Below, in pieces: positions 12,432-51,500 of a stretch of DNA of 64,000 nt. How positions within the stretch are numbered: the stretch's first letter is position 1; each line of letters opens with the position of its first letter. Origin of the DNA: Lingula anatina (taxonomy: Eukaryota > Animalia > Brachiopoda). The stretch covers positions 6,944,001-7,008,000 of the forward strand of contig CM120647.1 of NCBI GenBank assembly GCA_051362555.1, in the 5' to 3' direction. A program made the position numbers and the translations under genes. The notes under the pieces are model-generated. The model searched no databases. It was not told the DNA's origin and saw only the letters and a list, made by a program, of their open reading frames with translations.

Positions 12432-12469
<38 letters not shown>

Positions 12470-20123: not shown

Positions 20124-20558
20124 AATACTTTTCATGCCCCTAAAATAAGGATTGAGTTAAATAAAAATCAGTCTGTCCAGTTTTGTCGATGAGTATTTTA
20201 TTTATTAATTTCCGAATAAACACTTAATTTACTTGTCGCAGTTCTTATTATCTCGATAATTTCGTTGTAATGTTGCAGCAATATTTTCTGTGAACTCTCA
20301 GAGGTCAATCATGACGTCTTTTCAAGTCCAAGTCGTATAATTATAACACAAAAATCGATATATAAAAAAAAAAAAACAACTGGATAAGCAACATCACATA
20401 TGTCATTTTTAATCAGTTACATGCTTCGGTTCAACGTGTTAAAGTGTTAAGTCACAAAAAATATCATGTTTTGCGTGGATACAATTTTGGCTTTAAGTAC
20501 GTAGCTTACATGAGGTCGAATGACACCGCCTTTGAAAATGGGTCATGGACTTCAATAT

Positions 20559-21185
20559 CAGGCCTACCCAACTACCAGACGCGGCACCTACGGATCCTGA
20601 ATAAACCGGTATATCACACCACACTGTCCGTTTTCAAGGTGTGTGTCAGATCGCATTACGGAGTATCATACCCCATCACAAATTGTGTAGGCCTTCCTGT
20701 CATCCGGGTATCGCGCCTCGTTCTCGTCAAGTAGGAGTCGTATGAATACAACAACATGGCGACAGGCGACTCCCTCAATCTCGTCCATCCCGCTAGCCAT
20801 GAAAATATTTAACCCCCGACAGAATATGCTTCCGCTATCAAAATTAGGTCTACTTTTCTAAATTAATATATAAGTTTGCAAGTTCTTATTTACAAAACAT
20901 CATTGGCTATGTTCGAACCTAAATTTTATGTTAAAAAATTGCGGTATTGTCAGATTTTTAGCATAAACAAGGAAAATTGCAGCAGCGCATGAATCTAGAT
21001 GAGATGCACTACTTGCCAACCCCGCTTAGGCTCATCGCTATCACATCGCGCGCCATGCAAAATGGGTGAAGTGGCTGATACTCTGTAATGCGATCTGACA
21101 CACACCTTGAAAACGGGTAGTGTGGTCTGATATACCGGTTTATTCAGGATCCGTAGGTGCCGCGTCTGGTAGTTGGGTAGGCCTG
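20559..21185. mobile_element. 627-bp non-autonomous DNA transposon with ~110-bp TIRs
   Basis: CAGGCCTACCCAACTACCAGACGCGG... at 20559-20668 inverted at 21076-21185 with few mismatches; flanked by AATAT on both sides. Confidence 0.85.
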
Positions 21186-21872
21186 AATATTATTGCATGA
21201 GATTTTGCACAAATAAACCATCTATTGTTTATCCAATGATGCCCAAAGGCAAGTGGTTTCTTCAAAGAATAACTACGAAAAGCGTTATAATCTTGAAATT
21301 CATTTATTTTATCTCAAATGAGTTATATTTCGGATATCTGTTAATTCCTATGCACGATGGTGGAAGTGACCGTCCTGTGCTAGTTACCCTAACTTATCCT
21401 TGCAAAATCGAGCCTCCAATATTCCTCGCAAACTGCGCTTTATTCACAGCCTCCCAAAGAGGTATTAAAATTTATGTCATTCGCATAATTAAGCCAATGC
21501 GCAACAGAGTATCTTCACAATTCCATTCGCAAGTGGACATTTTGGTTTTTCAATAGACCTCCCACCTCACTCTTTCAGCAATTTTGACCTATAATTCAGT
21601 GAAGTTTAGTTTACCTTTTGAGTTTCTCTAAAGTACGGTCAATAGTCTTTGAGAAGTATTCTTTACGTGACCCACATTATGCTCCGGTATTGTTCAGTGC
21701 GGTACAATATCAAAGCGAACAAGTGGCCATTTTGTTGCAAAGCGTGCTGATATCGGAGGTGTGTTCTCCATATATATCGATCGTTACGCTCCCTTACAAC
21801 GCAGCTTTAAAAAGGTGTCATGCGCAGATGCATGCCATCGAAAGGAGTAAGATTTACCTGGCTGAGGTGAAG

Positions 21873-24800
21873 ATGTGGCGATTGAACATCCAGTAGTAAT
21901 AAAAACCCGGCAGCCTTACTAAAAAAGTGGCAGAGCTATTAAAAAACGCCATAGTAAAGTGGCAGAGCTATTAAAAAATGTGACAGGGCAATTATTTTAT
22001 TTATTTGTTTGTTTATTTATGAAAAAGATGCTTATATTCGTTGAAATGGTAGGTGTATACATAAAATTTGAAAGGATATGCGTTTGTTTTAGTTTTTCAT
22101 TGAATTGGATGAACAAAAAGACGTGCATTCGTTATTATTGATCCAAAAAAGACAGATGGCATTGCACGCGACTTAGTTGAACGCACCTCACAAAGTGTAA
22201 ACAAACAATATTCCGCTTATGGTCAGCTGAGACTAGTGTAATATTCACAAAGAGAGGTATGCAGGCCAAATACTTAGAGTATTGTGATAGTGTGTGGTTC
22301 GCAAACACTTAGTACAGTAGACTGAATCTGCCTTTTACGGTATTTCAATATAGTTGAGTGTAAAGCGGCCAGTATTAAATGAATGACACTGTTTTAATCT
22401 AAGCCAGGTAGTATCGTAGTAAAGCTCTATTCCTTTCTCGTGAACCAACTGTTGTAGTCTTCTATTTGTACTTAAACGCCGCATCAAATACTTTTGAATT
22501 CTCTAAACCCCTCCAACCTTTTATTCCTAAATGATCGCCTTGGTTTACACAAGCAAATCAATAATGCAGGCGACCAGTGTAAACAATCTGTTTAGATTTG
22601 GGCCTTTTGTAGCCACAACTATCACTTCACAACATTTTTTCAATCCAAAGCTAAACATTGGAGTACTCTTCTCTTCCTTTTTTAAAATAATATAAGTATA
22701 TTTCTCTTTCAAGTCAAAATTTCTCAGCATTTTCCCGACGCAATGCTACTCATTGCTGTATTTTTTTTCTGACCATCTTTAATCATCACTTGTTCTTTAA
22801 AGTTAAACAGTGCAGCATTTTTTCTGTCCATCTTTGAACATAAGTGTTTTCCTTGTTAAATTTAAAGTTTAAATTTAAATACATCTTTAAAATTATTCTG
22901 CGTTAAAAGTATAATACCCATGCTTACGGCTATTCTGCCTTCTTCAGGGACAAAGATGTAACTTATGATTCTTATTTATAAGATCTATGCGCCGATTTAT
23001 GATTTGCATTGTCTAATCTGAAGAATAGGGTCATATGTAGAAGTATTTTTTCTCCTTAATATAAGAAACAACAGTTATTGCGTCTGTTTAAAGTTAAACA
23101 GTGCGGTATTTTTTCCTGTTTGACTGTGAAAATTAGTGTTTCCTTGTAAAAATGAAACACCAACATAATATGCAGAAGTATTTTTACCTTTAGTATAAGA
23201 ATCAGCAGATTTTTTTTTTTCTGATTCAAGTTCAACTTTTTTCTGTTCATCTTTGAAAATCAGAAAATGAACCGATGAAAATGTATCACAAGAGATTTTC
23301 TACACAAGATCGCGTTAAAACAGTGTAGTTTTTGTCTGCTTAGTCATGTTATAGAACCATAAATTCAAGAAAACACATGTCATATGGATGAAATGTACTT
23401 TTATTAGTATACAATCTCTAATCACACGGTGGTAAAAATGACAAACTCTGTCATTGTTTCATTGAACATCACATCTAATGCGTTAAATATTGTTTAGTAT
23501 TTGAATTGACTTTATATTATACAATTCTTATCAAGGTAGGTATTTACACAGGAGGAGTAATGTAATAAGCTTTTACGTCTTGCTTTTCAAACACGCCTCC
23601 TCTGCACAACATTATATTGGATTAACAGCTAGGCAAAATAAGTTTGTTAAGGTAGTGACAGGGGTGAATAATGTACAATCAAATGTCTAAAGGTTGTCTT
23701 CGAATAATGTGCAACAGAAATATGTTCTTCCTTAAAATTCTGTTAAATGAACAGCCAAAAATAAGTTTTTCCTTGTCAAGTGAAAAAATGTACACTTAAA
23801 CGTCTAAAGGTGCAGTGGACACACCGTCTTCTAAAACTTTACGTTTACAATAATAATAACTGAATGCATCTTTTTGCTGTACATATGAATACATGCTATT
23901 TTTTAACAACCTTATGCCTCTATTCTCACCACTTCCACTCTTTCTATTCAGCAGTACATCTAAATACTTAGTTTCATCTATGTCATTGTTGTTTCTATTA
24001 ACACCTTTACAGCTAAATTTCGGCTTTGTTTCTCCCCCAAAACAATAATATGTCTTACTACAAAGGCCAACGATACCGTCGCCAATCCACTCGGCTTTAA
24101 ATAACCCCGGCGTTCTTTTATCATAGGCCTCGTTTTCTGGTGTATCAGTGCGAGGAAACCAAATATGTTTTTCAGCTTCGTACTGCTTACGCATATCGGG
24201 TTTTATCACGGCTTCCAAGCTATCTGCCGAAAAAGCAATGTAGGCGGAATCTGTGTCCATTTCACAATATTGGAAGTCGGACGGATCCACGAACTTAAGC
24301 ATGAAATCATAATAAAATTCCAACATGCGCAGCTTGGCATACTGATACACCATGACCCCGATTTGAATGGGTAAATCGTATTTGATGACTTTTTTGTTTA
24401 GTTCGATCTCATACGTGTCGTCAGTGATTTGATCTAAGCGCCGAAAGCGGGGGTTGTTCACTTTACGAGAGGCCTTAGCTTCACCGCAATATTCCACATC
24501 ACGGTGTTTTTCTTTATTGGTTACTGTTTTACCGTACCCCGAATTACCAATGAGCTTCATGGTATCGGCTACGATGGCCTTTGTTTTATCTTTGTCCCCC
24601 TCTCTGCGAGCATCGCTCACCGCGTTACCAAAATGCTGGAAGCAGGCTTTGGGCGTGTACTCGACTACCTGGTAGATGTAAGAGACGCGAAGACCGTGCT
24701 TCACATACCATTTCAAGAGGGGAGTAGCCAATAAAATTTTTTCACCGAAAAAACTGCCTATAAGCGATTTTCTAGGAGCACTCATAATGCCGTTTTCTTC

Positions 24801-27800
24801 GGCAAAATTTTTCATGTAAGCACCTATGTCATCTCTGGTAATGGTGGCGTTTTTAAAAATGGGTGGCATTTCTGCAAACATGGGTTTGAGTTCAGAGGGG
24901 ACTTCTATATCACATTCAATAAAACCAAACAACTTGTCGTTGCAAACGGCATGCAAAATTTCTGCAAATTTCAGTTGATGTTTGTTTTCAGTGGGGTGCT
25001 TGTACTGATTTACGAACAGTTGCACTTCTGCATTTTCTTTCTGTAATTTTTTCCACTCACACTCCCACATTTCAACCAAATTGTACCCTTGTTCTCGAAT
25101 GTACTGACTATTTTGATCTGTTTGGATACGCAGTGATTCCATGGATACTTTTTTCGTTTCGTTTATTTCTCTAAATGTGCCGTCCTTGTTTTGGTTTAGA
25201 TGACAACGGTGGCCATGAAAATAACACCCTTGGTACTGATACACGGTGTTTGTCTCAGAGCAAAAACCATCAACAGGTAGTCGGGGTTGGTAGCCTATGC
25301 GTTTTTCAATGTTGTTAAACTGATGCCGGATTTTCTGCCCAGTGTTGTGAGCGATCCAGTCCAACCACATCGTTGCTTCCCTCCCATGGGGATGGGAATA
25401 TTCGCGTTTATACCCTGATTCTACATGCCTGCGTATAAATGTACCCGTTGGCATGGGTTGCATCAAGCACCACAAGTAAAGAGCATTGGCATCGAAGCCA
25501 ATTATTTTCTTGCAGAGCTTGGGATCATCTACAGTGGCTTTTCTAATAAAAGTTTTGTTTCTTTCGTGGTAACGGTGAAATATAATACTTGGGCCGCCCA
25601 CGATGGCATTTTTCAGGAGGTAGTGGAGATCGCTATTTTTGTCATCAAAAAGAGTAAAATAAGCGTCTCCTACGTTTTGAAAGAGGTATTTCAGTGTTAA
25701 CCCTGGTACACTAATACCATCTTTAAACATATCAATTCCCCTCTCAAGGTAGAAGTCAAACATTTTAGCAACTGCTTCCAGCATAGGTTCAACATCTTTG
25801 TTGTTATACCAGGTGAGAAAGTCGCGCATTGTTTCCATATTGTTTTCCTCCCACACCCGTTGGCACAATGCGTAATCCTCCTCACTTATGGTGTTTTGCT
25901 TTAATTGTGAGGCAAATGCTTCACGTGGAGGGAGACAAGGGTAGTCGAGTTTATCCAAGGAGTCCATCCATTCATAGGGAAAGAACCCCTTAGATTCTTT
26001 GCACTCGAATGCTTTGAGAAACTGACTGTAACTGCACCCAGGTGCTAAATAATTTCTGACATCTAAGATTTTCAAACTATCTGACTTGAGCACCATAAAA
26101 TTGTTGTTCCGCTTGACTACAAAGCGCAACTTTTCTCTGTTTATCAACGACGGAAAAAACAATGTTTTCATGGCATTCAAATCGTAATGCCCACTATTGA
26201 ACCCTAATACTGGTAATTCCTTTAAATAGTTGCTAAACCTAGATAACAGTTTTGTTAAATAATGGCCCTTTCTAAGTTCATTAACATCCTCTTCTTCCTC
26301 ACTCATTTCTATGTCTAATTCTATATCATTCGTGACTTTCGTGTAACCATTTTCAAACACCCACTTAAATTTATCATTCAGTATTACCTTAGCCTCCTGA
26401 CTAACTTCAATGAGGGCAGCAATAAATTTACCCACAGTTTGGCCAGGATCACCGTCCGATATGAAGCACTTGGGCGTGGTGTGTCCTGGCACATTGCTAC
26501 AAATACTTACACTCAGGAACTGGTGCTCATGCTCCAAGTGAAGTTTTTCACTGTGTTCGGGGTTGTTTGCTGCCGGTAGCAGGCACTCGATATCAAAGGT
26601 TGCCCGATAGGGGTAATATCTATCTTCCTTAGGGATAGCCAGACCGTAATCCGCCAGCTCCTCAAAAATGGTTGGGGGTGTACTGTATGCTTTACCTGGG
26701 AAGCGGTGTTCGACGATAGCTTCACATGTCCGTTCGTGACGATGAAGGTCACCTTTATGCTTGAACATTTTGTTGCACTTTGAGCAACAAAAGGACTGGG
26801 TGTATTTCCCCATGTCTTTTATGTACGAAAAGTGATTTTCGTACACATTAAGCGACATGGTTTCCTTATACTTGCTCATTGATCGACGCACAAGTTCAGC
26901 AAAAGTCGCACCGTCTTCTGTTTCCTGCAACTCGTACACCGTTATGTTGACTTCGAACAAGTCTTCAAGTTTTTTTAGTTGTTTGAGCGACACACCATTA
27001 AACCCTTTGATCTTGCACCGCGTCTCGGCTCTGTATTTCTCAAAAAGATGTTTGGTGGTTTTTTCTAGTCCAAGCACTGGCCACCCTCTGTGCAAGGCAA
27101 GGCATCTGAACATGCACAAATTGTCTTTATAACAACCATTCTGATCTCCCTGCAATGCGACCAGACCCTTGTTATTTGTGATATAAGACGGTAAAAAGCC
27201 ACCACTGCCGATCGGATGACCCACGAGCTTGGTCACGTAGAATGTAGCATTAGTAACCATCTCGACTATCCAGCTGGAGTTGGGTCTCTCCTGCCGGGCG
27301 CACTCCAAAATATCCCTGACAGTAATGTGCTCAAAGAAACCATTGAGGTCGTCTTTGTTTTGGATTACAAACGGCTCTTCTAGGAAGCAATGGTTGTTGC
27401 TACTGGGGTGATAGTAACGCAGTTCCCCGGTCTCGTTGTTTCTTAAGAAAAATCCGTAAGACACATTCAACTTAAAAACAGTCTTTTGGTCTTTTAAAAC
27501 GGCAGCTAACCCTTCTCGAAGATCGTCAGGGTGAATAGTGGTCAACCGAAAGTTGTACCAGTCTTGCAATTTGTTTCCCCTAGAGAAGCGAGTGCGGATG
27601 GAGTTCCAGTGCTGCATGTAGGCGTCGCGTACACGAGGTTCAGTATCAGGAGGAAGAAGACCTTCGGGGATGCTGACTGGGTCAGGGGAAAGGATATTTG
27701 CAGCGCCATACCCCATTTGTAGTTTTTTATGAACGATGCTGGAATGAGAATCTGCTTTTCTTTTGTTCGAGGGCCCTGGTTGCGGATGAGCTTCAGCCTG

Positions 27801-30800
27801 GTGGTTTAGCCGGTCCTTTGGGGTGGCAAATACTTCGGCACACTCGGGGCATCTTAAGGTCGGTTGTTCTAGTCTGGTCGAGTGTAAGCGCATGTGAGTG
27901 CTCAACACATCACGTCGACCAAAGCATTTTCCGCACATTGGACAACCGTACGCCTTAGTGTGTGAGGCCCGGTGACGCTTCAGGCTTTCCGAGCGATTGA
28001 ACGACGCTCCACAGATATCACAGGGATATTGCTCAGCGCCGTGCACCGCCCTGATATGTTTAAGTAGATTACGCTTCTTGGTGAAAGATTTCTTGCAGGT
28101 TTCACACTTGTGCTCCATGGTTGCTGCAATGAACATATAACTTGTTATACATACCAGATATAGAACTATGCACTCAAATATGATTGGCTAATGCAAAAAT
28201 AAATGATCTATATGTTGCAATGAGCAATCCTATTGGTTGATTGTGACATCATATCTAAAAATAGATTTATTTGTGAGGCATTTGATTGGTTGAAATAATA
28301 TGATACTGCAATTTGATTAATTATGACATCATATCTAAAAATAGATGTGCTTGTGAACATTTGGTTGAAATAATATACTTCTGCAAAATGTCACTCATTC
28401 TAAGGTTTCATGATTGATTGTAATAAGACGATACTGCAATTTGATTGGTTGTTTAAAAACAGATGTTTTCTGATTGGTTACTGAAAAGAGTATTAAAACA
28501 AACGTTTTAGTTACATCAGACAGTTAAAGAATGGATGACAGTGAAGTGTTCACCGATTGTGCACCTGAAGACAAGCCCTTGTTTTTTGAAGTGCCTTATT
28601 GTAGGGAAGAAGATAGAATTCTGAGTTTTCTCAATTGGCCTGGCAAATTATTAATCAATCCTATACCTTTAGCCATCAGTGGGTTTTACAGGGACCCAAA
28701 TGCCCGAAATACAAACGACGCGGTCCTTTGTTTTAATTGTCGGGTCAGTCTTAGCAACTGGGACCCATTGAGGGATGCGGCTGACATTGAGCATGAACGT
28801 CACAGTCCACAGTGTACTATGAATACAGTAGAAAAAAGATTGAAGAATCCACTAAATGTTTCACTGACGCCCGAAAATAGACACGAATTGGTACAGTTGT
28901 TTGTCGCACATGAAAAGAAACCAAACTACACGCCCAATACAGTGAAAACACTTTTAAACATAGGCTTTGATGAAGTAGACGGAAACCCTGTAACACCATT
29001 TCAAAAGACATACACTCTATTTTAAAAATGCAGTGTTCGAACAGGTGAGCTTCATTTACGCAAAACAGTTGAAATAGGAAGGATGAAAAGAAGACACACT
29101 GATAAAAAGAACCGTAGAAGTAAGGGACACGCGGGAGAAGACCCAGGAAAACTCTATCATAACCCTGCTAGTCTAGAAAACACGATAAAACTGAGCCATG
29201 ATGCACACAAAATTAAAAAGAAAACTACACGTACACGAAAAAAGTTATTGTCCAAACGAGGTGCACAAACAAGGCAGCGATTTCAAGCTGACGATAAATG
29301 GCAAGCGGGTGATCACAACATGGCAAAATATAATTGCTTGTCAGCATTGCTTGATATATTTTCAACATACGCATGGGCCGTTGATATAATCGAAAAGAGC
29401 AGATCATTGAAAAGAGTGCACCCGAAGATAAATAGACCATTACCCCTCAATCAAATGCTGAGACAGAATTTACAAATAGGAAATTTCAATCACACCTTAA
29501 ACAGCAAGGGATAGCTTGAAGTCTGAAAGAAGTTGAGAACTAAAGGCCACGTTATTGACTAAGAATTAACACTACGAATATGACCCAGGCTTCAACCAAG
29601 AAAACAAGTAATAAAAAGAGAATTCGAATTTAGTTTAATTCGAAAAACCGATAGGGTATTTAGTTTGTGTGACTACCAGAAATATATTAACTTATATCGC
29701 AAAACCAAGTTTAAAAATGTATAAGTATCTGCAACTATTTAGTTCAACCCGAAAAAGCGATAGGGTATTTATAGTTTGTGTGACCACCATAACTAATATC
29801 ACGAAGTCGAGTTTTGAAAAAATATGCAATCAACACAATGTGTATCTTGCTTGGGCTCAAAGGTGTTTTGTATAACTGCATCGCTTCACCACCGTGTAAA
29901 TAACACGTCGTACGGGTATGCCACATTATATTTTAAAGTGTTAAAACGGGCCCAAATATCAACAGAAATGTAAAATGCAGTTTCGATAGCATGACTAAAT
30001 AAAATAGATATAAAATTATATAATGAGTTTTGTAAAATATAAAAACTGATTGTGGTTTCAAATGTTTAATTTTGACAACAAAACAAATGTAAAATGATCT
30101 TAACAGATCAAAACATAAAAATCTCCATGGTAAAAAAACTTAAGCGAGCTTCATTGTACATGAACAGAATTTTAAGTGTCCGTGGAAAAATATTTTTAAA
30201 AGGTTAAAGATTAACAGCAGAGTTGAAAATAAATCCTAACAATCGTTATGACCAGTAAGCATTCTTACATAAGTTGCTTATCTTATTTTAACTTATAACT
30301 GTTGTTGAAACAAAACTTAAACTCTTACGTTTTATGTTTGAACGTTTTTCATTTCAACTGTAATTTTAGTCCCCTTCTAAATTATTAACTAAGAACAATA
30401 TGAGGTATAAGTTTTTACTTAATTTTAAGTTTCTTTTAACGCTGTACATGTTCAGGTTATAATTTATAATCAACTATTATTCCACACATTGCCTGGAAAA
30501 AATGCTAGTTATAGAAATTAAACATACATTGATTTTCTATTCCTTGCTATAATAAAAAAGAACCTACCTTGTATCAGAACTTAAATATTAATCGAATAAT
30601 TGGTCCTTCCTCTACTGCCTGTGCGTCTTGTACTGTTCGCAGCTGTAGTATGCTGTATGGATAAGCCCTGTCCCAGCTATATAACGAGCTATATACACAC
30701 GTCTGGGCTTGTTTCTTCAAATTTAGCAAGCTTGCCCAAGCATGTTCCCGTTTATTCAAATGAAATCAGCTGTTCAACAAACAAATGACCGGTCAGATGA

Positions 30801-33800
30801 AATAAGCCTGGTTTCAGCTATATAGCGTTCAAGATCATGACCAGGCATGTTCTGTTTGCTCAAGCAATACACACAAATACTCCTTTGGCCATTCAGCGTT
30901 ATTCAAAGTGTTGCTATTGTAGCACATATAAACGCGTAACGATGGTATTGTCTCCTACTATAGTTGCTACGCGAGGTAGAGATTACAATACATTCCACTT
31001 ATTCATGTCATTCTTTACTTAATCCCTCCGCATTCTCCAGTCCCTCCCTGAATATCAATTACCAGCATTACCAACATTTTCTGGGACCAACTTACGAGTT
31101 CTATATCTATTTACTGCTTGTGATTTTATTTTTCTGCAACTAGATTTAATTTATAGGATTTATTAAGAATTTATTGTATCTTACACACCAGTACGTACTG
31201 GTGAAAATGTACTTAGGAATATAACTATAATTCGGTATGGAATCATAAGATTAAACATTACAGGTTATTAAAACTCAACTTGTTAACTACTTGATAATTA
31301 CAAGATTTCACATTGAACTGCAACATGACATCTATAGCTGAGCACGATCTTAACATAAACTCTATATTACATTGTGACAACTATACAAATTAGGGTGCTA
31401 GATGGGAGAAGCCATCCTTTTGTCATAAACTTTTTCGATAAAGTGTTTACTGAAGAATTTCACAGACTAATTGAAAGTTTTGTGAAGTACAGCTCAATCT
31501 TGTGTAGAAATTAAAAAGTTATAAGTTTAGATCACATAAACCTACACAAACCCTCCTATAGTGACAGTTAAATCATCTGAAAATATTATCAGACAATCTC
31601 CATTTACAACCCAATGATCAATCCATAGATAGTTTAACTCATTAATTTCACACACTTTATGTTTAGGAAACGTATTTGCACAAAGTTTATTGTATTCTTG
31701 GTTAATGTGATTAGTTTAAGTTAGAACAGAGGTTTGCTCACAACGGTAAAATGGTGATAATAAATTGCTATACGACATATTAAATGTTAGATGTGACTGA
31801 GATTTTTATCTAAAAGCAATAACTTCTGAGCACGGATACATAAAATATGTACACTTATTTTATCGCGCTGTTAATCCAACAGAACGGTGTGTAACAGACG
31901 CATGTTTGCAGATCATAACAACTTACAAGCTCGACGGGAAAGCTTATTACATAACTCTACTTGTGTTATACCTACCTTGGCAAGCTTTCGCTCTTTACTT
32001 AAAGTCAATCCTGCTCAACAGTTAGCGCATTAGATGTGATGGTCAATGTAACAGAGAGTTTGTCAATTACCACCGTGTGCACAGAAATGAAGAATACTAA
32101 TAAATGTACATTTTATCCATATGACATGTGTTTTCTTGAATTTATGGTTCTATAACATGACTAAGCAGACAAAAACTACACTGTTTTAACGCGATCTTGT
32201 GTAGAAAATCTCTTGTGGTACATTTTCATCGGTTCATTTTCTGGTAATTGAATTTCAAAGATGAACAGAAAAAAGTTGAACTTGAATCAGAAAAAAAATC
32301 TGCTGATTCTTATACTAAAGGTAAAAATACTTCTGCATATTATGTTGGTGTTTCATTTTTACAAGGAAACACTAATTTTCACAGTCAAACAGGAAAAAAT
32401 ACCGCACTGTTTAACTTTAAACAGACGCAATAACTGTTGTTTCTTATATTAAGGAGAAAAAATACTTCTACATATGACCCTATTCTTCAGATTAGACAAT
32501 GCAAATCATAAATCGGCGCATAGATCTTATAAATAAGAATCATAAGTTACATCTTTGTCCCTGAAGAAGGCAGAATAGCCGTAAGCATGGGTATTATACT
32601 TTTAACGCAGAATAATTTTAAAGATGTATTTAAATTTAAACTTTAAATTTAACAAGGAAAACACTTATGTTCAAAGATGGACAGAAAAAATGCTGCACTG
32701 TTTAACTTTAAAGAACAAGTGATGATTAAAGATGGTCAGAAAAAAAATACAGCAATGAGCAGCATTGCGTCGGGAAAATGCTGAGAAATTTTGACTTGAA
32801 AGAGAAATATACTTATATTATTTTAAAAAAGGAAGAGAAGAGTACTCCAATGTTTAGCTTTGGATTGAAAAAATGTTGTGAAGTGATAGTTGTGGCTACA
32901 AAAGGCCCGAATCTAAACAGATTGTTTACACTGGTCGCCTGCATTATTGATTTGCTTGTGTAAACCAAGGCGATCATTTAGGAATAAAAGGTTGGAGGGG
33001 TTTAGAGAATTCAAAAGTATTTGATGCGGCGTTTAAGTACAAATAGAAGACTACAACAGTTGGTTCACGAGAAAGGAATAGAGCTTTACTACGATACTAC
33101 CTGGCTTAGATTAAAACAGTGTCATTCATTTAATACTGGCCGCTTTACATTCAACTATATTGAAATAACGTAAAAGGCAGATTCAATCTACTGTACTAAG
33201 TGTTTGCGAACCACACACTATCACAATACTCTAAGTATTTGGCCTGCATACCTCTCTTTGTGAATATTACACTAGTCTCAGCTGACCATAAGCGGAATTT
33301 TGTTTGTTTACACTTTGTGAGGTGCGTTCAACTAAGTCGCGTGCAATGCCATCTGTCTTTTTTGGATCAATAATAACGAATGCACGTCTTTTTGTTCATC
33401 CAATTCAATGAAAAACTAAAACAAACGCATATCCTTTCAAATTTTATGTATACACCTACCATTTCAACGAATATAAGCATCTTTTTCATAAATAAACAAA
33501 CAAACAAATAAAATAATTGCCCTGTCACATTTTTTAATAGCTCTGCCACTTTACTATGGCGTTTTTTAATAGCTCTGCCACTTTTTTAGTAAGGCTGCCG
33601 GGTTTTTATTACTACTACATCCTAATTTTGTTGGCCATTTCATGGATTCCCGTGGACATTCAAGGTCAAAGTAAGTACATATTATTAATCTTAAATAAGA
33701 CTATATCTGAATCACAGAGGCTGATGATAAAACTAGTGCATGCAACTTTTTGTTTGCAACTTGAAGTACTCTGTAGGCATAAAAAGTTGGAGAGTATGGT

Positions 33801-33837
33801 CGCGATGATTAATGGCATGGATTGCGGCTCTTTGTAA

Positions 33838-33885
<48 letters not shown>

Positions 33886-36463: not shown

Positions 36464-36518
<55 letters not shown>

Positions 36519-39500: not shown

Positions 39501-42500
39501 TAAAAAGCAAAACATCGTTGTATGTTTCTCTATTGAATTCGGGACCTTTCTGGATCGAACACTGAAATCTCGTGGCATTCTTTATTGAGGTCAGATTTCA
39601 CCTGTACCGCTCAACAGTCAAAACAGAGTTTACAGACATACAGAGAAGGCCAACGACGAAGCGTGTGTCGCTTCTAAAGTGACTAAGGTCATTAACAGCA
39701 TCAGTATTTGGAGTGGATACCACATTGGTGCCAAAACACCAATGGTAGTCATCGACGATAACCTGAACCAGATCAAATAAAGAAATAATCTGGGAACCAC
39801 TTGGCAATCATTTGATAGTGGACAACTAACGAACAATTTTAGGTTGCACGGTGAGATTGCCGGTTCACACAGAGCACTTTTAATTGTAGTTTACGTACAG
39901 AACCAAGGGAATGAGCCACTACCTTGGTTATCAAAATCGCCATATTTGAACCACATAGACAATATGTGGGTAGGCCATTACTCTCCGAATCAATGGCCAA
40001 CATGTCCTACAACAAAACTGGCCCAAATTGGGCAGATTTCGACCGTTGCCTGGAATGTTATTCCAGATTGAACTTTAAAAACCTATCCCAAGGAATGCCT
40101 TGCCACTTGAGAGCGCTGGAAGCAGCCAGAAGATGTCAGGCGTAACAGCGACCGTCACTGTGACTAGACACTGACATGAGGGTCCTTTGTGGAGCGTTTA
40201 ACTCTTTTACAGACAATAATTTGGAAAATGTGGAGGTCCAAAATATCCCTTTTAATGGTTGTCGTATGACATAGAATAGGCAATGTGTTTTTGTTTGCTT
40301 CTCTAGCGAATTCCATTAACGAACTGATGTCACAATGACATCAAAGAGATAATTAAAAGTTATTAAAACACGATTTTAATCCTTATTTTCATTTATCAGT
40401 CTGCAAAACAGGAAAAAAACTGATGAAAAATGATGTGGAAAAAATATTCCATATTAAATGTCAAGTCTGTATTTAACAACTAAAAGGACATTTTTAAAAA
40501 AAACTCTGCAATAATCTTTTACGATATGAACACCGAGGGTAGGCGTCTATTAATCTTACATGGTCTTTTGGTAAGAACAGTTTCCAGAATAATTGCGAAA
40601 AAACTGCTGTTTTGATGAAAACTTATCATATTTTCATATTTTCATGAGCTGTTTACAATGCGTTCATTGTGAATTGTGAAGAGTTTTTATCACTTTCACA
40701 ATCATACTAGTACAAAGCAGCAAGATTGTATTGCTTTCTGACTGTGTGAGGTAAAATAACTTTCTTCTTATACTTTGCAGCTGGCGATGGTGCCGTTCGC
40801 CTGGTGAACACAAGTAGCCCCTACGAAGGCCGTGTTGAGGTGTACTATGCCGGGGAGTGGGGACGTGTGTGTGACTACAACTGGGGTTTAAATGATGCTA
40901 AAGTGGTTTGCAGGCAACTTGGATTGACTGGGGCCCATACGTCTTTTAAAGGCTGGAGTCCCAGAGGCACTGGTAAGTCGACAATTGTGGTTATTCATCA
41001 ATACGTAAATGTGTTTTTTCTATCTTTTATTTCTATGGAAAGTGGGGATGTATAATTTTCCTGAGTTTAAGTTGAGATGATTTGTCATTTATTCAAATTA
41101 GTCATGAAGAAAGCATATTACGGGTTGCAACAAATACATATATTTACAAATGGCGTTCATAGTCCATCATCATTCCCACCAACAGTGTCTTAATTGTCCG
41201 GTAAACGTTATTTCTGACTCAGGTAAATACTGGCTGTATAATGTAAACTGTACAGGAACAGAATCCAATCTAACCCAATGCACCCATGGTGGCGTTGGCA
41301 GCATCAATACCGGCAATTGTGGTCAGAGTGGTTTCAACGACGCTGGGGTAATATGCCATGGCGGTGAGACACACATTAATATTATATATATATATATATA
41401 TATCCTTTTGGACTGTTGAGAAAATTACTTCTAGCTTCATGCAAAAACGGCTTTATATAGATTGTTTTTTCTTATTATGCCCTTGAATATTCATAAACGT
41501 ACAATCTATGGCAGATCTCATTGATTCTGCTGGTATCCAAAGTTATAATGTCTGAGCCCGTTTTTCGACCTGCATTGTCAGGATTTGGGAAGGGGGTCCG
41601 TGGATACGAAACCGACCCCCCCCCCCCCCCTTGGCGTGGGGCTCGGCGCCCGCTTAAGGTCCCCGAAAATAATTGGTATTTTAGAGAGCGAATGGCGCCA
41701 TTTGGTACGGATAAAAAGTATGATTCTGGGTCTTCTGGTAGACGGTCAGATTTTTAAGTTTACTTTGACAAGTATCTATTTTTTCTGTCGGAAGACGGTC
41801 AAAAATGGAGGATGGTAACAAAGATAATTTGAAAGACTGTCAGGAAATATCTCTGGATCCGCCCCTGAATGTATATATTTCTTAGCACTAGTGTCTCATC
41901 ACTTTCACCTGGATCTCAGATGTAACGAAGTCTGCACGTGGCCCTTATCAAACACGATTTATGATCGTATGTTGCCCTATGTTCTGTGAAGATTACTTCA
42001 TCTAAAAATATGATCTGCTTTCTTTTGAGCAGATATCTTTGTCACGGCACTCATTTTGTAAATCAACACTGTAACCCTTCCAAAACTTTTAATATTATAA
42101 ATAAGGAAAGGTTAAATGAAAACATACCATTTAACACACCATGTAAGTTTCTCAAACATGCGTGTTTGTTTTTATCTAAAGAGTCTAGTACTCAGACATA
42201 TTGGTCAGAAAATCGGCTGACACGAAGCATGAGATGCATTCAGGATGCATATGAAGTCAATTTTTTGCTGCAAAAACCAACCAAATTAATGCCGGCAAAT
42301 AGATTCAAATTGTATAACTAAGCTTATTACCATAATACACTGTTTAATATCACCCAAAAATGATATTTGAACCTTTTTTTTATTCTGCAAGCTTTCTATG
42401 CTGTAAATACATGGAGCAAAAAAGTAGGTCACATAAGTAGGTTAGATTTCTGACCAAAATTGTAAAGGCGGGTGTAGTCTAAAGGGTTTTTTTATGGATG

Positions 42501-45500
42501 ATTGAGTGATTTATTCATGTCGACTTTACTTGAGTCGCATAAGAAACTAGTAGAAGTGGTTTATATGTATTTTAATTAAAATTAAAATGAAAAAAAAGGG
42601 AATTCACGCTCCATCGATGCTCGGTTCATATGTACCTTTAAAATAAATATAACATTAAATGCTCGATTTGAGCGGTGCTTGTTAATGCTTTCAGACGGCG
42701 ACGGTGCCTTGCGTCTTATTAACACATCAAATGCGTACGAAGGTCGCTTGGAAATCTTCTATTCCGGGAGATGGGGGAGAGTTTGTGACTACGGCTGGGA
42801 CCTGACTAGCGCTGACGTGGCGTGTAAACAGCTTGGTTTTACTGGGGCCCACACACCATTATTTAGTATGTCACCTAGGGGGACAAGTGAGTATAAAAAT
42901 TGTACACCTTAAGTGGATACTTTAATCGTACGTATTTCGATAGCCTTTTATTGTTTAAAACCGTGATTTTAAAAGTGTAGGCATCGTAATGAATACTTAA
43001 CATGTACTGTTTACAATTATTGACTGTTGCCTTACGTTAACGTGGCGTTTTGTAGACTGAAGCCGAAGTTAATTCTTTTTGTGAATCTTTCTTTTCAAAC
43101 ACCAGGTCATTTCTGGATACAAGAGGTGAATTGTCAGGGATCTGAGTCGACCCTGGCAGATTGCCATAATGACGGCGTTGGTGTTATCAGCTCATCTTAT
43201 TGTTCCCAGTCTTCGTCACATGACGCCGGCGTTCTGTGTAAAGGACGTGAGTATATACCAAAGGTGGATCCAGAGAAATTGCACTTTAAGACCAAAACAG
43301 GCCCACTAGTGTTAGTACAAGTGTTGATTATAATATTCATGAGCATTGAACGTTCAAATACCGGCAGCGATTTATTCAATGCTGTTCTCACTGGTTGTTT
43401 TTGTCGTTTTGCATTACTTACAGCCAATGACGGAGAAGTGAGATTGATCGGCGACTCACAGTATCATGGGCGAATTGAGATATTCTACGCAGGAGACTGG
43501 GGAAGAGTGTGTAGATATCGATGGTCACTGAATGACGCCAAAGTGGCCTGTAGACAGCTGGGCTTCAGTGGGGCGCTGAATTACTGGACAGGTTGGACAC
43601 CTAAAGGGACTTCGCGGGTGGTGTTAGGTAAATTGTTTCTAGGTCTGTCGGTCTTTCTGACTTAATGGTGCCAGGTACTGTTTGCCTGAATGCGTGACTT
43701 CCGTCTGAGTAGTGCCAAGTTCTGTTTGTGGCGGTGTCCAGCAACACAGAGCCCTATCATTCTTGGGTCCGCCGGACCCGGTGTTTTGAATGTAAATCGG
43801 TGTTCTGAAATGTAAAGTCCCACTATAGACACTCTATTTCAGTACGGAAAGTCCTAGGACCCTACATTTTAACACTAAAAGTCCGCATTGAAGAGCAATA
43901 ATGAAATCTCACACTTAAAACATGCAATTTAAAAACAACATTGAACATGATGTTGACTGATACAGAGGGAAGAATTACAAGGTAAAATAAACATTATTAA
44001 CCTCTCTTAAAGTGTAACGCGTAGTATAAATGTGCATTTTTCGCATTTCATAAACTTTAATTTGCAGTTTTATCTTTTGTATGCATTTGAGAAAGAACAT
44101 AACTAAAGAAATATAAACCTATTCAGAATATCTAAGTGCCTTTGGTGAACTTCCTAATTTTACAAAAAAGTTTATTTTATTAATCAGTATAGTTATTGTC
44201 TTTTCTCCTCAATGTCATTTTCTCTTTGCCATGCATTTCTTGTAACAATGCAGTTTTCTTATCTTCTCTTTCTACTTCTTTCCTCCATCTCCCCTCCTCC
44301 CTCTCTTCCTTCCCACTCTCTACTCCAACTATCTTTCTTACAGCTCTGTAATATAAGCAGCCGCTTTCAAGCTAAAACAGGAATGTAAATATGTACCTTA
44401 AATGCACATGTAAGTTGCGCTTTTATCAAACAGTATTGAAGTTAAACGAGTATAAATGTATAAGACTTACTTTAAAATGTTATGCGGAGCTTCTCCTTAT
44501 TGCTCTTTCCTGATTGTTGGATGTTCGTCTTCTGTACCTGCCATGTTGTAAATAAAGTCGCACTGCTTGAAAACCCATGCTGACAGAGTAAGACATCGCG
44601 AAGAGCTAGCCATTTTATACCCTGAGAAACATGGGATGCATTCCTTTTGGGTTGATTCCTTTTCCATTTAGGGAATGCAACTTAAATTAAAACTTTATAT
44701 AATTTGTCAAACAAAATTAAATGAGTACATTTTCAATTACGCTCCGTAAGCATGTATATTCAATAACTAATTAATTTCGTCAGTTTCCAGAAAATACATA
44801 TTTTGTACAATTTGGCATTGATGCACTGTATAACGCTAGCTGTCACACATTTATGAGTGGTAGTCATGGTAGACTAAGTCACGCATATAGTCTAAGGAAA
44901 AGAAACGTTTTGCACAGTTTAGCATCGATTCATTGTGAACCACTAGCTTTCACACGTGCGAGTGGTATTAAAATAAGTCACGCGTATATATAGTCCAAAG
45001 CATCACAATGAAATGGGATATGTGAAATATATTTTAAATAAGTCCAATTAAAAAAAGGTATGAAATGTAATCGAAAATGAGTATAACCCATTTTATTGCG
45101 TAATGAAACACAATAAATGGACAGTAGGTGGAATATTTGCCTATAAATCTACGGACCACTGGTTTCTGAAATAACGGGTCCCGGACTTTCTGTCATGTGG
45201 GGACCTTCTGGTACATGTACATGACACCGGTTTTCCCGAGTAAGTGACGCTAAATACTGTTTGTTACTCTTCCTGATTTTCTATTAGCACCCTACAGGTC
45301 TGTTTTGTTCTTTTCGCTTTCATTTTCCTGAAGAGGTATCCGAACGAACATGTGACCCAGACTTTCGGCGGTCAAGCGCTGCATTTGAAGGGGAGGTGCA
45401 GCCATTAGATGCCGAAAACGAAAAATTTCTCTCTAATTCTCGAAACGTTTAAATGAGATGCCTTTTGTTTGTTGCATTTTACGGGGCTTAGCAAGCACAA

Positions 45501-48500
45501 CCATGGAAGTTGTTTTCCAAACGGTTTAGAAGTTAGAAGTTGTCGCAATGCTCAATGATGAAAAAAAAGTGAAATACTCCAAAACTTGCATAGATACCCC
45601 ATGGTTATTATAGACATTGAATAGGAAGCCATTTATTGACAATCTTACTGTGACCGGCAGTTAGATTGTCGATATGTGGATCAAGCTAGGAATGGGAACC
45701 AACTATAAGTCGAAAGTGATTTGAAATCGATAAATTTCAGCTTCGTTGGGCACATTTAAGTCTATCTAATATCTGGTATGTGTGGCTGATAACCCCAGTA
45801 GGCTAAAATACTGGGCATGATTTCATTGCTCACTTTTCACATTTTATTTATCACATACATGTACCGGTATACAGTTTCTCTAGTCAACAGATGGGAATAC
45901 ATGAGGTATAATTTGAAATATGTACTGTCTGTCTGCCTGTCTGTCTGTTTTTTCGGCTGAGTAGTGCTAGACCAAGTGTTTAACACTTTTTGTATATCTA
46001 TATTTTTGGCTGGATCATGCTAGGTACTGTATTTGAGTGTACTTAATTTTTTAACTGATTGGTTCTGGATAGTGTTTGTGTCTGATTGCCCCTTTGTAAG
46101 AGTGGTGTTGTTTGTATGTCTGGCTGTCTGCGTATCTGTCAGCTGCCTGTTTGCTGTCTCTCTACTGAGTTGTGCTATGGGTACCGTCTACCTGTGTGTG
46201 CGTGTGCGTGTGTGTATGTGTGTGTGTGTGTGCATGTATGTGTACGTGCGTGTGTGTACATGTGTTTGTGCGTGTGTGTGTGTGTCTGCCTGTCTGTTGT
46301 CTCTATGACTGTTGTGTGTTAAACACATGTACACATGTCAGTCATGGTCGGCTCATAAGGCTTGTCATCCTCGCCATCTTCCTCTATACAGGGTATCTTT
46401 CGCTGCTCTGCCGTTGTAACAGAACTTATGGTCCGTGTGACAGAAAGTCAGCCCTCCATTTAGTTATAATGGTTAGGGTTGGCTTGACCTAGGTGGGTTA
46501 AAAAATAGGAGAAGGTTTACCTGTACAAATGAATGGGAAGCAGACTCTCTGTCATGGGGGATCTCTGTCACTTTACACCGGCTTCACTCCATGTTTGCCA
46601 CCAATGATATTTTCGCTCAGCCTCTGCGAGCAGTAATATCATTAAGTCTACCTTGTACATGTGCATGTACATATGAGAGTGAGACTTGCGTTGTGATGTG
46701 CTGTCCTCAGTGTGATTATGTAACGTCTTGAAAAAAAATGTAATTTACGATTTTCTATTGTGTAATGAAATTTTTCAGACAAATTACGCTGTGCCGGTAC
46801 AGAGAACCGACTGGATGCCTGCGGTCATGGAACGATAGGCTATACCGATTCATATTACTGCTCGGCAACCGCTTACGTGGACGCCGGGGTCACCTGTAAA
46901 GCACGTGAGTATGAGGGAGTGCGCGGGAAAAGAAATGCGCTAAGGGAGGGGGGGGGGGGGCTAAATATGTTCATTAAAAATGCAAAAAAGGCGAGGGCAA
47001 TTGTTTTAATATTATACCTGAAAAGGTTAATAGTACTATTGGCCCTCCTGATTTATTTATTGTAGTATACACAGCACCTTTGATGCTACTATCATAGCGA
47101 GGACGCGTTGGTGGTCCTGTCCTGATTTTACTGTATTTTCTGAAGGGGGTCAGATACCAGGCCCCGTATGCACAAAATATCTTAAGTGTATTTTTTAAAG
47201 AATTTCCTTAAGTGATCAACCTTAACATAGGTGGTATGCACAAAGCATCTTAAGATGAGAATTTCCCCAAATATCTCCTTAACTTTAAAGCAACAATAAC
47301 TCTTCCTTGAGATTCAAAATTCCGCATGAAATACATTGTAAACAACGCATGGAAATATATTCTATTGTATTTTACCACTAAAACGGCCGTTATTGTAGTA
47401 AAACTAAAATCTGTGCTTGTCAATAGGGCTTTCGATGCCTTTTCTTCCCGGTCATCAAGGCATTCGTTGCTAATGACGTAATGGTGTCACACGGATTCTC
47501 GCGTTCATTCGAGACCAAAATAACATATGGCGCGAAACGCATTAATGCAGACGCAGACGTAAGTTGCGAGTTTTTGTACAGTGCGTCGGATAACGAAAAG
47601 CCCAGAATGGCACACATTGTGGATATTAATGTATTTTTAACAAAAAGACGAATATATCTAATGAATCTTATATAGTGTTGTTGTTGTCTGCTTTTCCCGC
47701 GGTTTTAAGTAGGTCAACAGTGACTATGCGATGTCAGAGAGAGCTCCGTCAGTTAAAATCTCTTAAGAGATTTTAACAAAAAACCGTACGTTTAGGAAAA
47801 AACCCTGGATTAACTTTGAATGCAGGAATGGGGTCGTTGACCATTGGTAAGTACGGGAAAATTGCCGTTTTTTTCCGGGAAAATCCAATTTTTGGCCAAA
47901 ACGAAGAGTTATTATGACTTTAAGGTACCTCATTGGGTCTCTTAAGTGGAAATTTTGTCCTTAGATTCAGTGACTGTACAACACAGTGGCATTCATTTGT
48001 GCTAGTCAAAGCTGTGCAGCAACATTGTTTCTCTATGGCTCTTAGTATTGCTGTTTATCGTGAAGAAGTGGATGAACTGGAAAGGGCAGTCGCAAGACCA
48101 AGAATATTTCGGGACCGCGAAAGTCCTTTGGATTTTTACCCAGATCATGACATTTACCAGCGCTTTTGTTTTGATAGAGAGGGGATATTCTGGCAGTTAC
48201 ATTTGTAATTTGTCGTTCTGCTAAGGGATATCTAAAGTGAAAAATTCTGAGTGGGCACTTTTTATGACATGTTGCTTATGAAATCCCCGAGAAACCACCT
48301 TTAACACGGAATCTCACGCATCAATGCTTATACAATTAACATAGGTATTTAATATGTGCATACGTGGGGTCAATAGTGAAATTAATTATTAAAATAATAT
48401 TTATATTATGAATTACTTCACAGATAACGCTAAAAAAATATGTAAATCGAAAACATGTAAATGGACATAGTCATGAAATAAGTACATGCTGGGCTTAATT

Positions 48501-48597: not shown

Positions 48598-51500
48598 AAT
48601 GTAAATTTCCTCCATCAAATGTGCACCTCATGCACAATAACATACTCTCCCTGTACTAAGAGTGCCTCTCACTGCATTTTATGTTACTATTAGCTTTGCT
48701 CATGGCACTTCCATGTTTTAGTGTATGTAATGACGGTCCGGAGGGCATCGTTGGTTAAATTCAATGTGTTTTTGTATGAGCAAAAAATACGCCCTACTGA
48801 ATCACTTTTTCCAGAACTATCGCCGATATGGGGGATGGGTGCACATGTATCAGCCAATAGAGACAAAACCTTTCGAATAAAATGTAATTATGTCACTGGA
48901 TTATTATTATTAGTTTTGGGTATGGGGGTTGGATGACATGTCTCTTTTTCTGTCAGAATATGAAGAATACTAGGCCTACACAAGAAGTTACAACTTCTTG
49001 GCCTACACGATTGATATCTCAATTCTTCTAATAATAATAACTGATAGGCCTATCATTTCCAAGTAAAGGATTCCTTCAAACATGGATTCCCCAGAATTTC
49101 CTCAGTGTAAGCTATTCTAACAGGTAATTCTATTGGTCAATGCACAGGCTAAACATAGCTCAACACATAAGAGAAATCCTAGAGTTGAGAAAATTCTTGG
49201 CTTAGGAAATTCTTAAGGTACTTTGTGCATGCCACTTAAGGGGTTTCCTCTGTTAAGAATTTTCTTATGAAGTTAAGGAGAATTGTTCACTTAAGATAAG
49301 GATTGTTTGTGCATACGGGGCCAGATACCTAATTATATATATCCTTGGTGATGGGAGGTTCACTTACCTACATTGTTAAGTATTGACCCTTCATGGTGGA
49401 CGTCTTAATAACAAAAAATGCATTCGTGCATGGCTATTAAAACGGATTATACTAGCGGCAAATATAGCTGCTAGGGGGTAATTATCTTTACCCCTAGCTG
49501 ATGCGATAGGCGTGACAGACATTTAAGCTGGCCAAGTAGATATCAATTTAGTGAGACTCCCCAAGGAGTTAGATCGATCCAAATATCTGTGGGAATGGTC
49601 CCTTAGTTTAAAAGATAAATACCAAATACATTGAAGTTCCCCATTGTCACTCAACACAGGCTGCATAAAGCTTTTTATTGCCCCAACCTTTCTAGCTGAC
49701 GATGGTCAACTTCGTCTGGTGGACGGTAACGGCTACAACAGCGGTCGTGTGGAGATCAAGTTTGCCGGACTGTGGAGGCGTGTTTGTAAATTTGGATGGG
49801 GAAGCAAAGACGCCGCAGTTGTGTGTCGACAGTTGGGCTATAGCGGATACGTTAATGTTGCAAGAGGTAAGGCAAGTGAGAATAAATTAAAGAAATAGAA
49901 ATACATGTACATTAAAAGCAAGATAAATGTCCTGTAACGTAAACATTATAAGTAGCAGGATTTTACACAGCACAAATAGAATATTTACCCGTAAATAAAA
50001 TAATCAAGTCATTATAATTCGAAATTGATCTAACAGGCAGTAGAAAAAAGTCTTTCAGAGGCTCTCTCATATTGGCTTTTTTATGCGATCTGCGCAGATT
50101 TTGCGCATGATTTTTCTTTTATTTTGGCGATAACAGCAAATGATAAAAAATATAACAAGCAATAAAATATTTCATTCATCCTTTTATGAAATTTTTATGA
50201 AATCTTTATTGTAATTTTGGTCGAAGCGCTACAGTTGCGTATCAATAAAAACTCGGTCTTTTACGACGTAACGTACCCACTTGCGACCTTTATCACAAAT
50301 GCCGTGATGAAGTTAACAATTTACAGCTGTGAGGTGATCATTTGTAAATAAAAGTATATGATATGGGGGGGGGGGGGGCAACTTTTTTGACCAATGTTGT
50401 ATGTTCTTGAACAATATGGCCTGTTAACAGTGCGATTTCCAACCCTTCTGCAAAGATGGCATAGGTGGGCATCCATCTAGCATAAGTGGACATTTGGGGT
50501 TGCGTTGTTCGTGTTGTTTCCCGTTATCATGAACATGATTATATTACATTGATTACTTTTTAATTGGCAATCTCAAAAAAGATTGCCTTTTTTGTGTCCA
50601 AAATTGTGTTTTTTCAGGTTGGATCCCCAGGGGGAGTGGGGAATTTTGGCTGGACAATGTTGCCTGTGTTGGAACAGAGAGTAACCTTACAGATTGCTCA
50701 CACAGAGGGATAGGGGTATACAGCATCTCATTGTGTGACCTAAGCAGTAACGCTGACGCTGGAGTTTACTGTCAAGGATACTTACGTACGTATGTCTTTC
50801 TCACTGCCAATAAGAAAGTCAGAGACTATCTGTCTGTTTTAGAAACAATTTTTTCTGTAGGTCTGTATGTCTGTGCCGCTTTCCTTTCTTTTTTTCCTTT
50901 TTTATTTTTTTTTAAATTTTTATTTAGTTTGTATTTTTTGAGAGTACGAGGATTCTTTTATTGGCAAAAACATATTCGTGATGAATTATTCGCAAAAACA
51001 TATTCGTGATGAAATAGGGGATTGATGACGCGCGACACCTGATTTTGGCTTAAAATTTAGCTTCACTTTGCAGACATAACGTAGACCTAATAAATGGGGG
51101 CAATAATCTAGGTATCGGCATGTTTCAGCATTTTAGTTCTATTGGACGGAAGTGATCATGAATATTTCGAAATGGGCGTTAAGAGGCTGTAATGCGTTGT
51201 GAAAGGTGCGATATTTAAATTTGTATCACAACTTTATATCACAACTAATCATTGAAATATAAAATCCATTTTCTCTACCAGCGGGTGTAACTCCCCCCAG
51301 TACAACCACCACAACGACCACCGTTGTAGTAAGTAGTATTAATTGATTTCACTCAGCCTACGCAGGTATATACCGGTGTGCTGTTTGGACATTTCAGCAC
51401 ATTTACTTTGTTTGCCAGAAAATAGTCATATTGTATATAAAAAAACAATAGCTTATGTTAAAAAGGACTTTTAATAAAACTTTATCATTAACGTAATCAA

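Follow-up and report, generated by a model that had tools for sequence, protein, structure and literature searches.

A Maverick/Polinton element of 11,725 bp (21892-33616) interrupts the signal-peptide exon of an SRCR gene in the 64,000-nt stretch of Lingula anatina DNA analysed here, which we call the window. In our preferred reading, with a probability of about 0.7, a Maverick derivative with a broken integrase landed recently and by chance in codons 6-7 through the integrase of a relative, leaving an allele that would be null and of little cost. The original prediction that an element lies in this exon is borne out by junctions, target-site duplication (TSD) and termini that can be read directly (Table 1). 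The host ATG is at 21873, the left junction passes from ...TTGAACATCC into AGTAGT at 21891/21892, and the right junction passes from ACTACT into ACATCC at 33616/33617. The 6-bp TSD, ACATCC, is exact on both flanks, an identity that two random host 6-mers would show with a chance of 4.1e-4. On inspection of the sequence, the ends are AGTAGT and ACTACT and the TIRs are ~1.75 kb long; the published Maverick signature likewise comprises (AGT)2//(ACT)2 ends, with (AG)3//(CT)3 as an alternative, and a 6-bp TSD (PMC8097293). TSD, termini and TIRs together mark an integrase-type insertion. The two TIRs differ by 11 substitutions over their outer ~1520 bp (0.7%), although they are no clean clock, because their inner ~230 bp are just 73-81% alike.

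Table 1. Positions in the window of the host gene, the insertion site and the element's features.
Feature	Position	Strand	Basis or remark
Host signal-peptide exon, 5' half, ATG to target site	21873..21891	+	homology to paralog leaders
Left TSD copy, ACATCC	21886..21891	+	
Left TIR, opens AGTAGT	21892..23643	.	in-frame TAG 21894-21896 and AATAAA at 21898 (host sense strand)
pPolB, zinc-finger, intact	23796..28136	-	53-58% to top Branchiostoma/Exaiptasia matches; PF03175 on many relatives
Single-BIR protein, 164 aa, four Zn ligands	28531..29025	+	PF00653, E 2.7e-12
Broken rve-integrase remnant	29083..29514	+	short matches in two frames, 29281-29406 and 29448-29513
Right TIR, closes ACTACT	31853..33616	.	
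Start codon supplied by the TIR (A at -3, G at +4) and continuous in frame with remaining exon 1	33556..33670	+	38-aa predicted leader
Right TSD copy	33617..33622	+	
Host signal-peptide exon, 3' half, up to GTAAGT donor	33623..33670	+	
SRCR domain 1	40781..41363	+	exons 40781-40972, 41223-41363
SRCR domain 2	42695..43246	+	exons 42695-42886, 43106-43246
SRCR domain 3	43424..46904	+	exons 43424-43627, 46779-46904
SRCR domain 4	49696..50785	+	exons 49696-49866, 50618-50785
Thr-rich linker exon	51282..51328	+	same linker in P0121-P0124
Cys-rich domain and hydrophobic GPI-signal-like tail	51714..52288	+	two exons; stop ends 52288

In the native frame the inserted allele reads MWRLNIQ* and ends at the TAG of the element's terminus, as had been proposed. 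Removal of the element and one TSD copy gives a first exon of 67 nt (phase 1), which joins 11 AG/GT-bounded exons in a single open frame of 620 aa with a terminal stop only; the earlier claim that all 11 downstream exons are open is thus confirmed, and all splice in frame at canonical sites. The predicted product has four SRCR domains, a Cys-rich domain and a GPI-like tail. PF00530 is matched by all eight half-domain exons, seven of them above the curated cut-off, which places the gene in the SRCR superfamily. Pfam gave no match to the C-terminal Cys-rich domain, which its CC..CN motif makes a candidate Ly6/uPAR-like domain. The closest named proteins are those of L. anatina itself, at 63-88% identity per exon and none near-identical. 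Four annotated by NCBI as 'DMBT1-like' (P0121-P0124) share with the window gene a leader, 3-5 SRCR domains (four in the window gene, with a 22-aa leader), the Thr-rich linker, the Cys-rich domain and the hydrophobic tail; a single-sequence fold of P0124 was unusable (pLDDT 34). DMBT1 architecture includes CUB and ZP domains, and since Pfam found neither in P0121-P0124, 'DMBT1-like' is a label and not a statement of orthology. For its part, 'innate-immune receptor' is a putative role that reflects SRCR family membership only.

Leader exons homologous to the split exon lie at 17009 (minus strand), 55920 and 61447. These had been taken for intact paralogs; the homology of the leaders stands, but the genes can be called intact at the exon level only. 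The search turned up no SRCR exon within 56051-64000, which leaves the 55920 leader without any ahead of the next leader, and the last SRCR half and C-terminal exons of the 17009 gene were not detectable within the window. The neighbouring SRCR copies in the window look incomplete. The element-free leader has 22 codons, 6 nt less than the 24 codons of all three paralog exons, and putting back the second TSD copy adds 0 matches to any of those leaders, which suggests that 6 nt had probably been lost in frame before the element arrived.

By its gene content the element is a non-autonomous Maverick/Polinton, with no detectable ATPase or capsid-module genes. Its pPolB ORF has 1407 homologs, many carrying PF03175, and retains the catalytic motifs, although a Pfam search of the ORF itself returned zinc-finger matches only. 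The integrase is not an intact rve/DDE enzyme but a short, diverged remnant. ORFs from 80 related loci were clustered and the clusters turned into profiles (integrase, from 27 loci; ATPase, 22; ~450 aa, 18; ~180 aa, 18; ~265 aa, 14), the ATPase cluster being named by Pfam and the capsid/protease clusters by size and one weak Peptidase_C5 match only. Outside pPolB, the integrase profile alone of the five run matched the element (E 6.6e-4), with E of at least 0.2 for each of the ATPase, ~450-aa, ~180-aa and ~265-aa profiles; neither an ORF nor a profile match was found in the element for packaging ATPase, protease or major and minor capsid proteins. A PDB search with a 450-aa cluster protein gave nothing useful, and scans of viral contigs found no relative. 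Because its integrase is broken and, unlike in intact Mavericks, no ATPase, protease-size or capsid-size ORF was detected, the element is non-autonomous and would form no virions on its own.

The BIR protein combines PF00653 with the CX2C..H..C pattern of zinc ligands seen in IAPs, and at E<=0.1 its 164 aa gave neither a RING, nor a second BIR, nor a match to any further Pfam family. A RING domain or multiple BIRs are typical of caspase-inhibiting IAPs, and the PDB matches include survivin as well as XIAP/cIAP; 'anti-apoptotic cargo' is thus a putative description that derives from one BIR domain. At one related locus (L031) a BIR ORF also adjoins pPolB. An L. anatina 'putative inhibitor of apoptosis' (P0125), also with a single BIR, is 82% identical over its full length and is the sole full-length relative among the best 150 matches listed; it is probably a further copy of the cargo carried by this element that has been entered as a host gene.

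In termini, 6-bp TSD, TIRs, intronless pPolB, rve-integrase ancestry and an IAP-like accessory gene, the Lingula element resembles the animal Mavericks/Polintons (adintoviruses) that have been described. At 11.7 kb it is smaller than the intact vertebrate elements reported (12.7-24.6 kb), whereas its TIRs exceed the 46-1447 bp given for vertebrate elements (PMC8097293, PMC8502044, PMC6431247). The pairing of BIR cargo with a hit in an immune gene, singled out in the original prediction, is less notable than it seemed, given the IAP homologs reported in adintoviruses/Polintons (PMC8502044), the second BIR-pPolB pair at L031, the 113 SRCR gene models of L. anatina (PMC10855680) and the reported Polinton insertions into the C. 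elegans defence gene eri-6/7 (bioRxiv 10.1101/2024.01.15.575659). As described there, eri-6/7 is like the present case in that a partial Polinton interrupts a defence-related gene, varies among individuals and carries a TIR that may rescue expression; however, it is a single-copy siRNA helicase with repeated insertions and measured expression effects, whereas the Lingula case is a lone insertion, known from DNA alone, into a gene that has many SRCR paralogs.

The insertion is likely to be recent and polymorphic, as originally suggested, because a 60-bp contig in one public DNA run (X1) is reproduced in simulation only with an element-free copy and an unrelated animal (X3) gives no sign of the element at this site; the open downstream exons also support this. 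The X1 contig corresponds exactly to 21862-21921 (0 differences, depth 45), and the assembly graph branches exactly at 21892. In a k=31 graph simulation the junction contig came out at 70 bp from the window only and at 63 bp once a paralog branch was included; 60 bp at 21862-21921 resulted only when an element-free site was added. The empty junction sought in reads is therefore implied by the shape of the graph, but its letters are inferred from that shape and not read. The contig across the filled left junction has 30 letters per side and misses the 31-letter bridge rule by one. An excision footprint was rejected by reasoning as the element-free copy, since with both TSDs retained the next letter would be A and the contig would start at 21863. 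The element-free sequence could stem from a paralog that is nearly identical, from pooling of animals in the sample or from mosaicism. The depths, which do not equate to copy number, fit a simple heterozygote imperfectly (flanks 62 and 150, junction 45, and 83-99 in the eight gene-body contigs listed, 4,807 bp with 0 differences). The right junction does not appear among the matches listed for 33300-43700, and X1 is not independent, as the assembly may have been made from this very sample.

One X3 contig of 2049 bp follows the upstream flank as far as 21770 and then continues for ~690 bp, with no TIR piece among those listed; this allele departs from the window before exon 1, so the exon may be absent. 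The window's flank and the X3 allele differ by 7 substitutions and a 20-bp indel in 320 bp, a divergence above that of the TIRs. A further run (X2) shares the haplotype, and none of its contigs listed bridges the junction, a gap that is uninformative; runs from other studies contain just 0.09-0.11 of the locus words, and no RNA run figured among those listed as containing the locus, an outcome that speaks for neither side. Two RNA runs (X10 and X16) yield a handful of reads that fall on the SRCR exon bins, at a likeness of at least 92% and sense-stranded in X10, and because their letters differ we regard them as alleles or paralogs of other animals. Roughly a quarter of X16 was covered, and none of its reads fell on 21747-21881. 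Mapping over 33300-43700 was dominated by intronic repeats, and 0 of the 15 joints listed came from RNA.

We consider it unlikely that the insertion is instead fixed on its haplotype, or sits in an already dead paralog, with the element-free X1 sequence coming from a near-identical duplicate. The irregular X1 depths, the lack of a near-identical named L. anatina protein, the low word content of other studies' runs and the incomplete adjacent copies all fit such a history, but 11 of 11 open exons with canonical splice sites and a TIR divergence below the allelic divergence speak against it. An assembly chimera, or half-exons from different paralogs, we hold to be scarcely credible: the exact TSD (p about 4e-4), the in-frame join, the occurrence of the junction words in X1 at 0 differences and the graph branch at 21892 weigh against it, despite long TIRs (1.75 kb), a tandem gene family and a bridging contig of only 30+30 letters. 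Nor does immune targeting follow from a single insertion. A preference of the element family for SRCR genes, for first exons or for open chromatin near promoters, by which it would often inactivate immune receptors, is very unlikely in our view; the position 19 nt after an ATG and the single C. elegans defence locus struck by several Polintons (bioRxiv 10.1101/2024.01.15.575659) are in its favor, but there is only one event here, and with 113 genes (PMC10855680) the SRCR family presents a large target in which insertions into redundant genes would be expected to survive.

Another possibility concerns the claim that the receptor is disrupted. The native frame does stop, but the disruption may be incomplete: the in-frame ATG at 33556 in the right TIR, which had escaped the original prediction, opens a frame of 636 aa, and by sequence may rebuild a plausible signal peptide, so that the allele may not be null. 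A right-TIR promoter, or splicing from the 5' UTR into the TIR, would then yield the receptor at full length, headed by a leader of 38 aa, an outcome of low probability. This leader keeps a hydrophobic core (best 9-aa KD mean 2.78, against 2.38-3.71 in the paralog leaders and 3.00 in the element-free leader), the start codon is flanked by A at -3 and G at +4, and a candidate donor at 21866 (6.8) and acceptor at 33541 (4.1) score within the ranges of true sites (4.0-11.4 and -1.0 to 12.2) on a matrix trained on 11 introns only; Polinton TIRs are also reported to rescue eri-6/7 by trans-splicing (bioRxiv 10.1101/2024.01.15.575659). However, with an open ATG in one of the three outward TIR frames an in-frame ATG is a 1-in-3 coincidence, 47 of the element's 608 AG sites score >4, and an AATAAA is found just 6 nt in from the left end. 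The stronger version, in which the TIR is a portable promoter and N-terminus (ATG and 20 codons) that restores the signal peptide and puts the SRCR receptor under element control in carriers, is decidedly improbable.

We therefore favor a chance insertion of a Maverick derivative into one member of a large, redundant family, probably an ordinary event rather than an attack on immunity. Integration would have been carried out in trans by the integrase of another family member. The native ATG runs into the TAG after 7 codons with the AATAAA next within 10 nt, and native transcripts would be truncated or degraded. The allele would segregate, with the element-free version of the same 30-mer co-existing in X1, as graph shape and depth suggest, and an animal without the element in X3. 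Since the SRCR family is large, the null allele is likely to be of little cost and could survive among many paralogs under birth-and-death turnover.

A literature search pairing Lingula with Maverick returned no relevant paper, and the literature searches as a whole showed nothing on this locus. What the locus offers is a Maverick insertion into a brachiopod-type genome that is clean, young and probably segregating. It suggests that loss of integrase and capsid need not stop a derivative from being mobilised when its polymerase is intact and it has a BIR gene, and that such elements help to prune tandem SRCR arrays. Nature has here provided either a knockout of the receptor or an exchange of its leader.

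The element spans 21892-33616 (11,725 bp), starts with AGTAGT and ends with ACTACT, and carries an exact ACATCC on both flanks, an identity expected of two random host 6-mers with a probability of 4.1e-4. Both termini and duplication agree with the published Maverick signature of such ends plus a 6-bp duplication, as excerpted from PMC8097293. Removing the element and one duplicate copy restores an exon 1 of 67 nt, confirming the predicted insertion into a signal-peptide exon. The 11 downstream exons, all AG/GT-bounded, are open as predicted and with exon 1 give a single 620-aa frame encoding a leader, four SRCR domains (8/8 half-exons match PF00530), a Thr-rich linker, a Cys-rich domain and a hydrophobic tail. 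The C-terminus may be of Ly6/GPI type, judging from its motifs; neither Pfam nor the predicted fold confirmed these labels. The last exon has four homologs, all L. anatina 'DMBT1-like' proteins (63-73%), one of which has a nearly identical 24-aa leader; this makes Lingula the probable host. All three paralog leaders exceed the element-free one by two codons, and putting back the other copy of the duplication brings no further matches to them, so a small in-frame deletion likely preceded the insertion.

The terminal inverted repeats (TIRs) extend over about 1.75 kb. The two copies are separated by 11 substitutions (0.7% divergence) and two short indels in their outer ~1520 bp, and their inner ~230 bp are far less alike (see table), which suggests a once longer, older TIR now homogenised in its outer part only. 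Several TIR-like contigs with ~88-95% identity to 21892-22250 occur in X1 and X2 (DNA runs sharing the window's haplotype) and in X3 (an unrelated animal), and would indicate older subfamilies in the species.

Within the element, a minus-strand ORF of 1446 aa with C2H2 fingers contains all six polymerase motifs sought; it has 1407 homologs, many bearing PF03175, the best being from amphioxus and sea anemone (53-58% identity). Another ORF, of 164 aa, encodes a single BIR domain; its sole full-length relative among the matches listed is an L. anatina protein (82%), and its PDB matches include survivin. The third ORF is what remains of an integrase; short stretches, lying in two frames, match the rve integrases of related loci. 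ORFs of 80 related metagenome loci were clustered, and 24 of the 25 largest clusters, leaving out the polymerase cluster, were searched as profiles against the element outside its polymerase. Only the integrase profile matched (E 6.6e-4); in that sequence the ATPase profile (22 loci) and the ~450-, ~265- and ~180-aa profiles (18, 14 and 18 loci; capsid/protease identity assumed by size) found nothing better than E 0.2. Because the integrase is a remnant and these four profiles have no match, the element is a non-autonomous Maverick; the integrase of a related element would have supplied integration. Short direct repeats lie at 28233-28446, between the divergent polymerase and BIR starts, and at 29628-29795, 3' of the integrase remnant; they are possible promoter or origin elements.

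The fraction of locus words found was 0.65-0.70 in two runs of one study and 0.09-0.11 in runs from three others. X1, possibly the assembly's own source sample, yields a 60-bp contig matching 21862-21921 without differences at depth 45, with 30 letters per side of the junction, one under the bridging rule. In k=31 simulations the window alone gave a 70-bp junction contig and an added paralog branch 63 bp; 60 bp at exactly 21862-21921 arose only when an element-free copy was added. From these boundaries, X1 most likely holds both element-bearing and element-free forms. As the element-free letters are inferred and X1 coverage is uneven (depth 62 and 150 in the flank, 83-99 in the gene body), a heterozygote, a near-identical duplicate, a pool or a mosaic are each compatible with the data. 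The upstream flank is matched as far as 21770 by a 2049-bp contig of X3, which differs by 7 substitutions and a 20-bp insertion and then runs on for ~690 bp with no TIR match among those listed; this suggests that the element is absent from this site; that allele may lack exon 1 as well. TIR divergence is below the allelic divergence of about 2% (window flank versus X3) and all exons are open, which point to a young insertion; the original prediction of a recent, perhaps polymorphic event is thus likely correct.

The claimed disruption of the receptor may be incomplete, given an alternative start codon. In the inserted allele the native frame is only seven codons long before a stop, as first noted, with AATAAA just beyond at 21898, and this allele is most likely null. 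Were the in-frame ATG of the right TIR, at 33556, used instead, a full-length receptor would be made: this ATG has good context and opens a 636-aa frame whose 38-aa leader keeps the signal-peptide hydrophobic core. However, one of the three outward TIR frames has such an ATG, and therefore any coding insertion would gain one by coincidence one time in three; we consider use of the ATG at 33556 improbable. Rescue by splicing is a weak candidate: a score above 4 is reached by 47 of the element's 608 acceptor-like sites, about the level of the acceptor needed (4.1), and the poly(A) signal precedes it. Two RNA runs from other animals gave only a few reads, from alleles or paralogs.

Other features of the window and the inner TIR segments
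Feature	Position	Strand	Remarks
Glycosyltransferase family 92 gene	1895-5102	-	PF01697 on two exons
Paralogous SRCR gene	10748-17009	-	7 SRCR exons detected after leader
MITE-like inverted-repeat elements	33925-35056, 11010-12096, 20554-21191		introns and intergenic DNA
Inner TIR segments	23410-23643 and 31853-32094		73-81% alike vs 99% in outer ~1.5 kb
Leader exon, intact-looking	55920-55992	+	upstream sequence conserved

The exons proposed as paralog leaders are indeed homologous, but not all head intact genes. No SRCR exon was found between the 55920 leader and the next, at 61447; the former could be an orphan, or else serve the 61447 gene as an alternative first exon. For the minus-strand paralog, the last half-domain, linker and C-terminal exons were not detected before the next gene, and it is possibly 3'-truncated; positions 10079-10113 form a 35-nt stretch of poly(A). 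The ORF at 4464-5102 is probably the first coding exon of the putative glycosyltransferase gene. In the DNA runs, parts of the host gene's first intron are present at very high copy number.

Adintoviruses reportedly carry IAP and Bcl2 homologs (excerpts of PMC8502044), the former recalling the BIR ORF here; a lone BIR without a RING is no proof of anti-apoptotic activity, which stays putative, as does an immune role, and targeting is hypothetical. In related metagenome loci, a BIR ORF (L031:7878-8228) lies beside ATPase and polymerase, and TBP (PF00352) and PC4 (PF02229) homologs (L039:16060-16650 and L039:16998-17492) adjoin an integrase, as either transcription-factor cargo or flanking host genes. 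Excerpted sources describe Maverick/Polinton elements in general (PMC6431247), cargo genes of nematode Mavericks (10.1101/2022.07.12.499685) and the C. elegans defence locus eri-6/7, interrupted by partial Polintons with TIR-mediated rescue; the available part of PMC13159474 makes no mention of Mavericks, and our literature search did not find this Lingula locus.

The observation is thus confirmed and its interpretation partly supported. The SRCR gene models of L. anatina number 113, according to PMC10855680, and the seemingly incomplete 55920 and 17009 copies would fit birth-and-death turnover. The insertion is of an already known kind, a defective Maverick in a redundant receptor gene, and is likely young and segregating.
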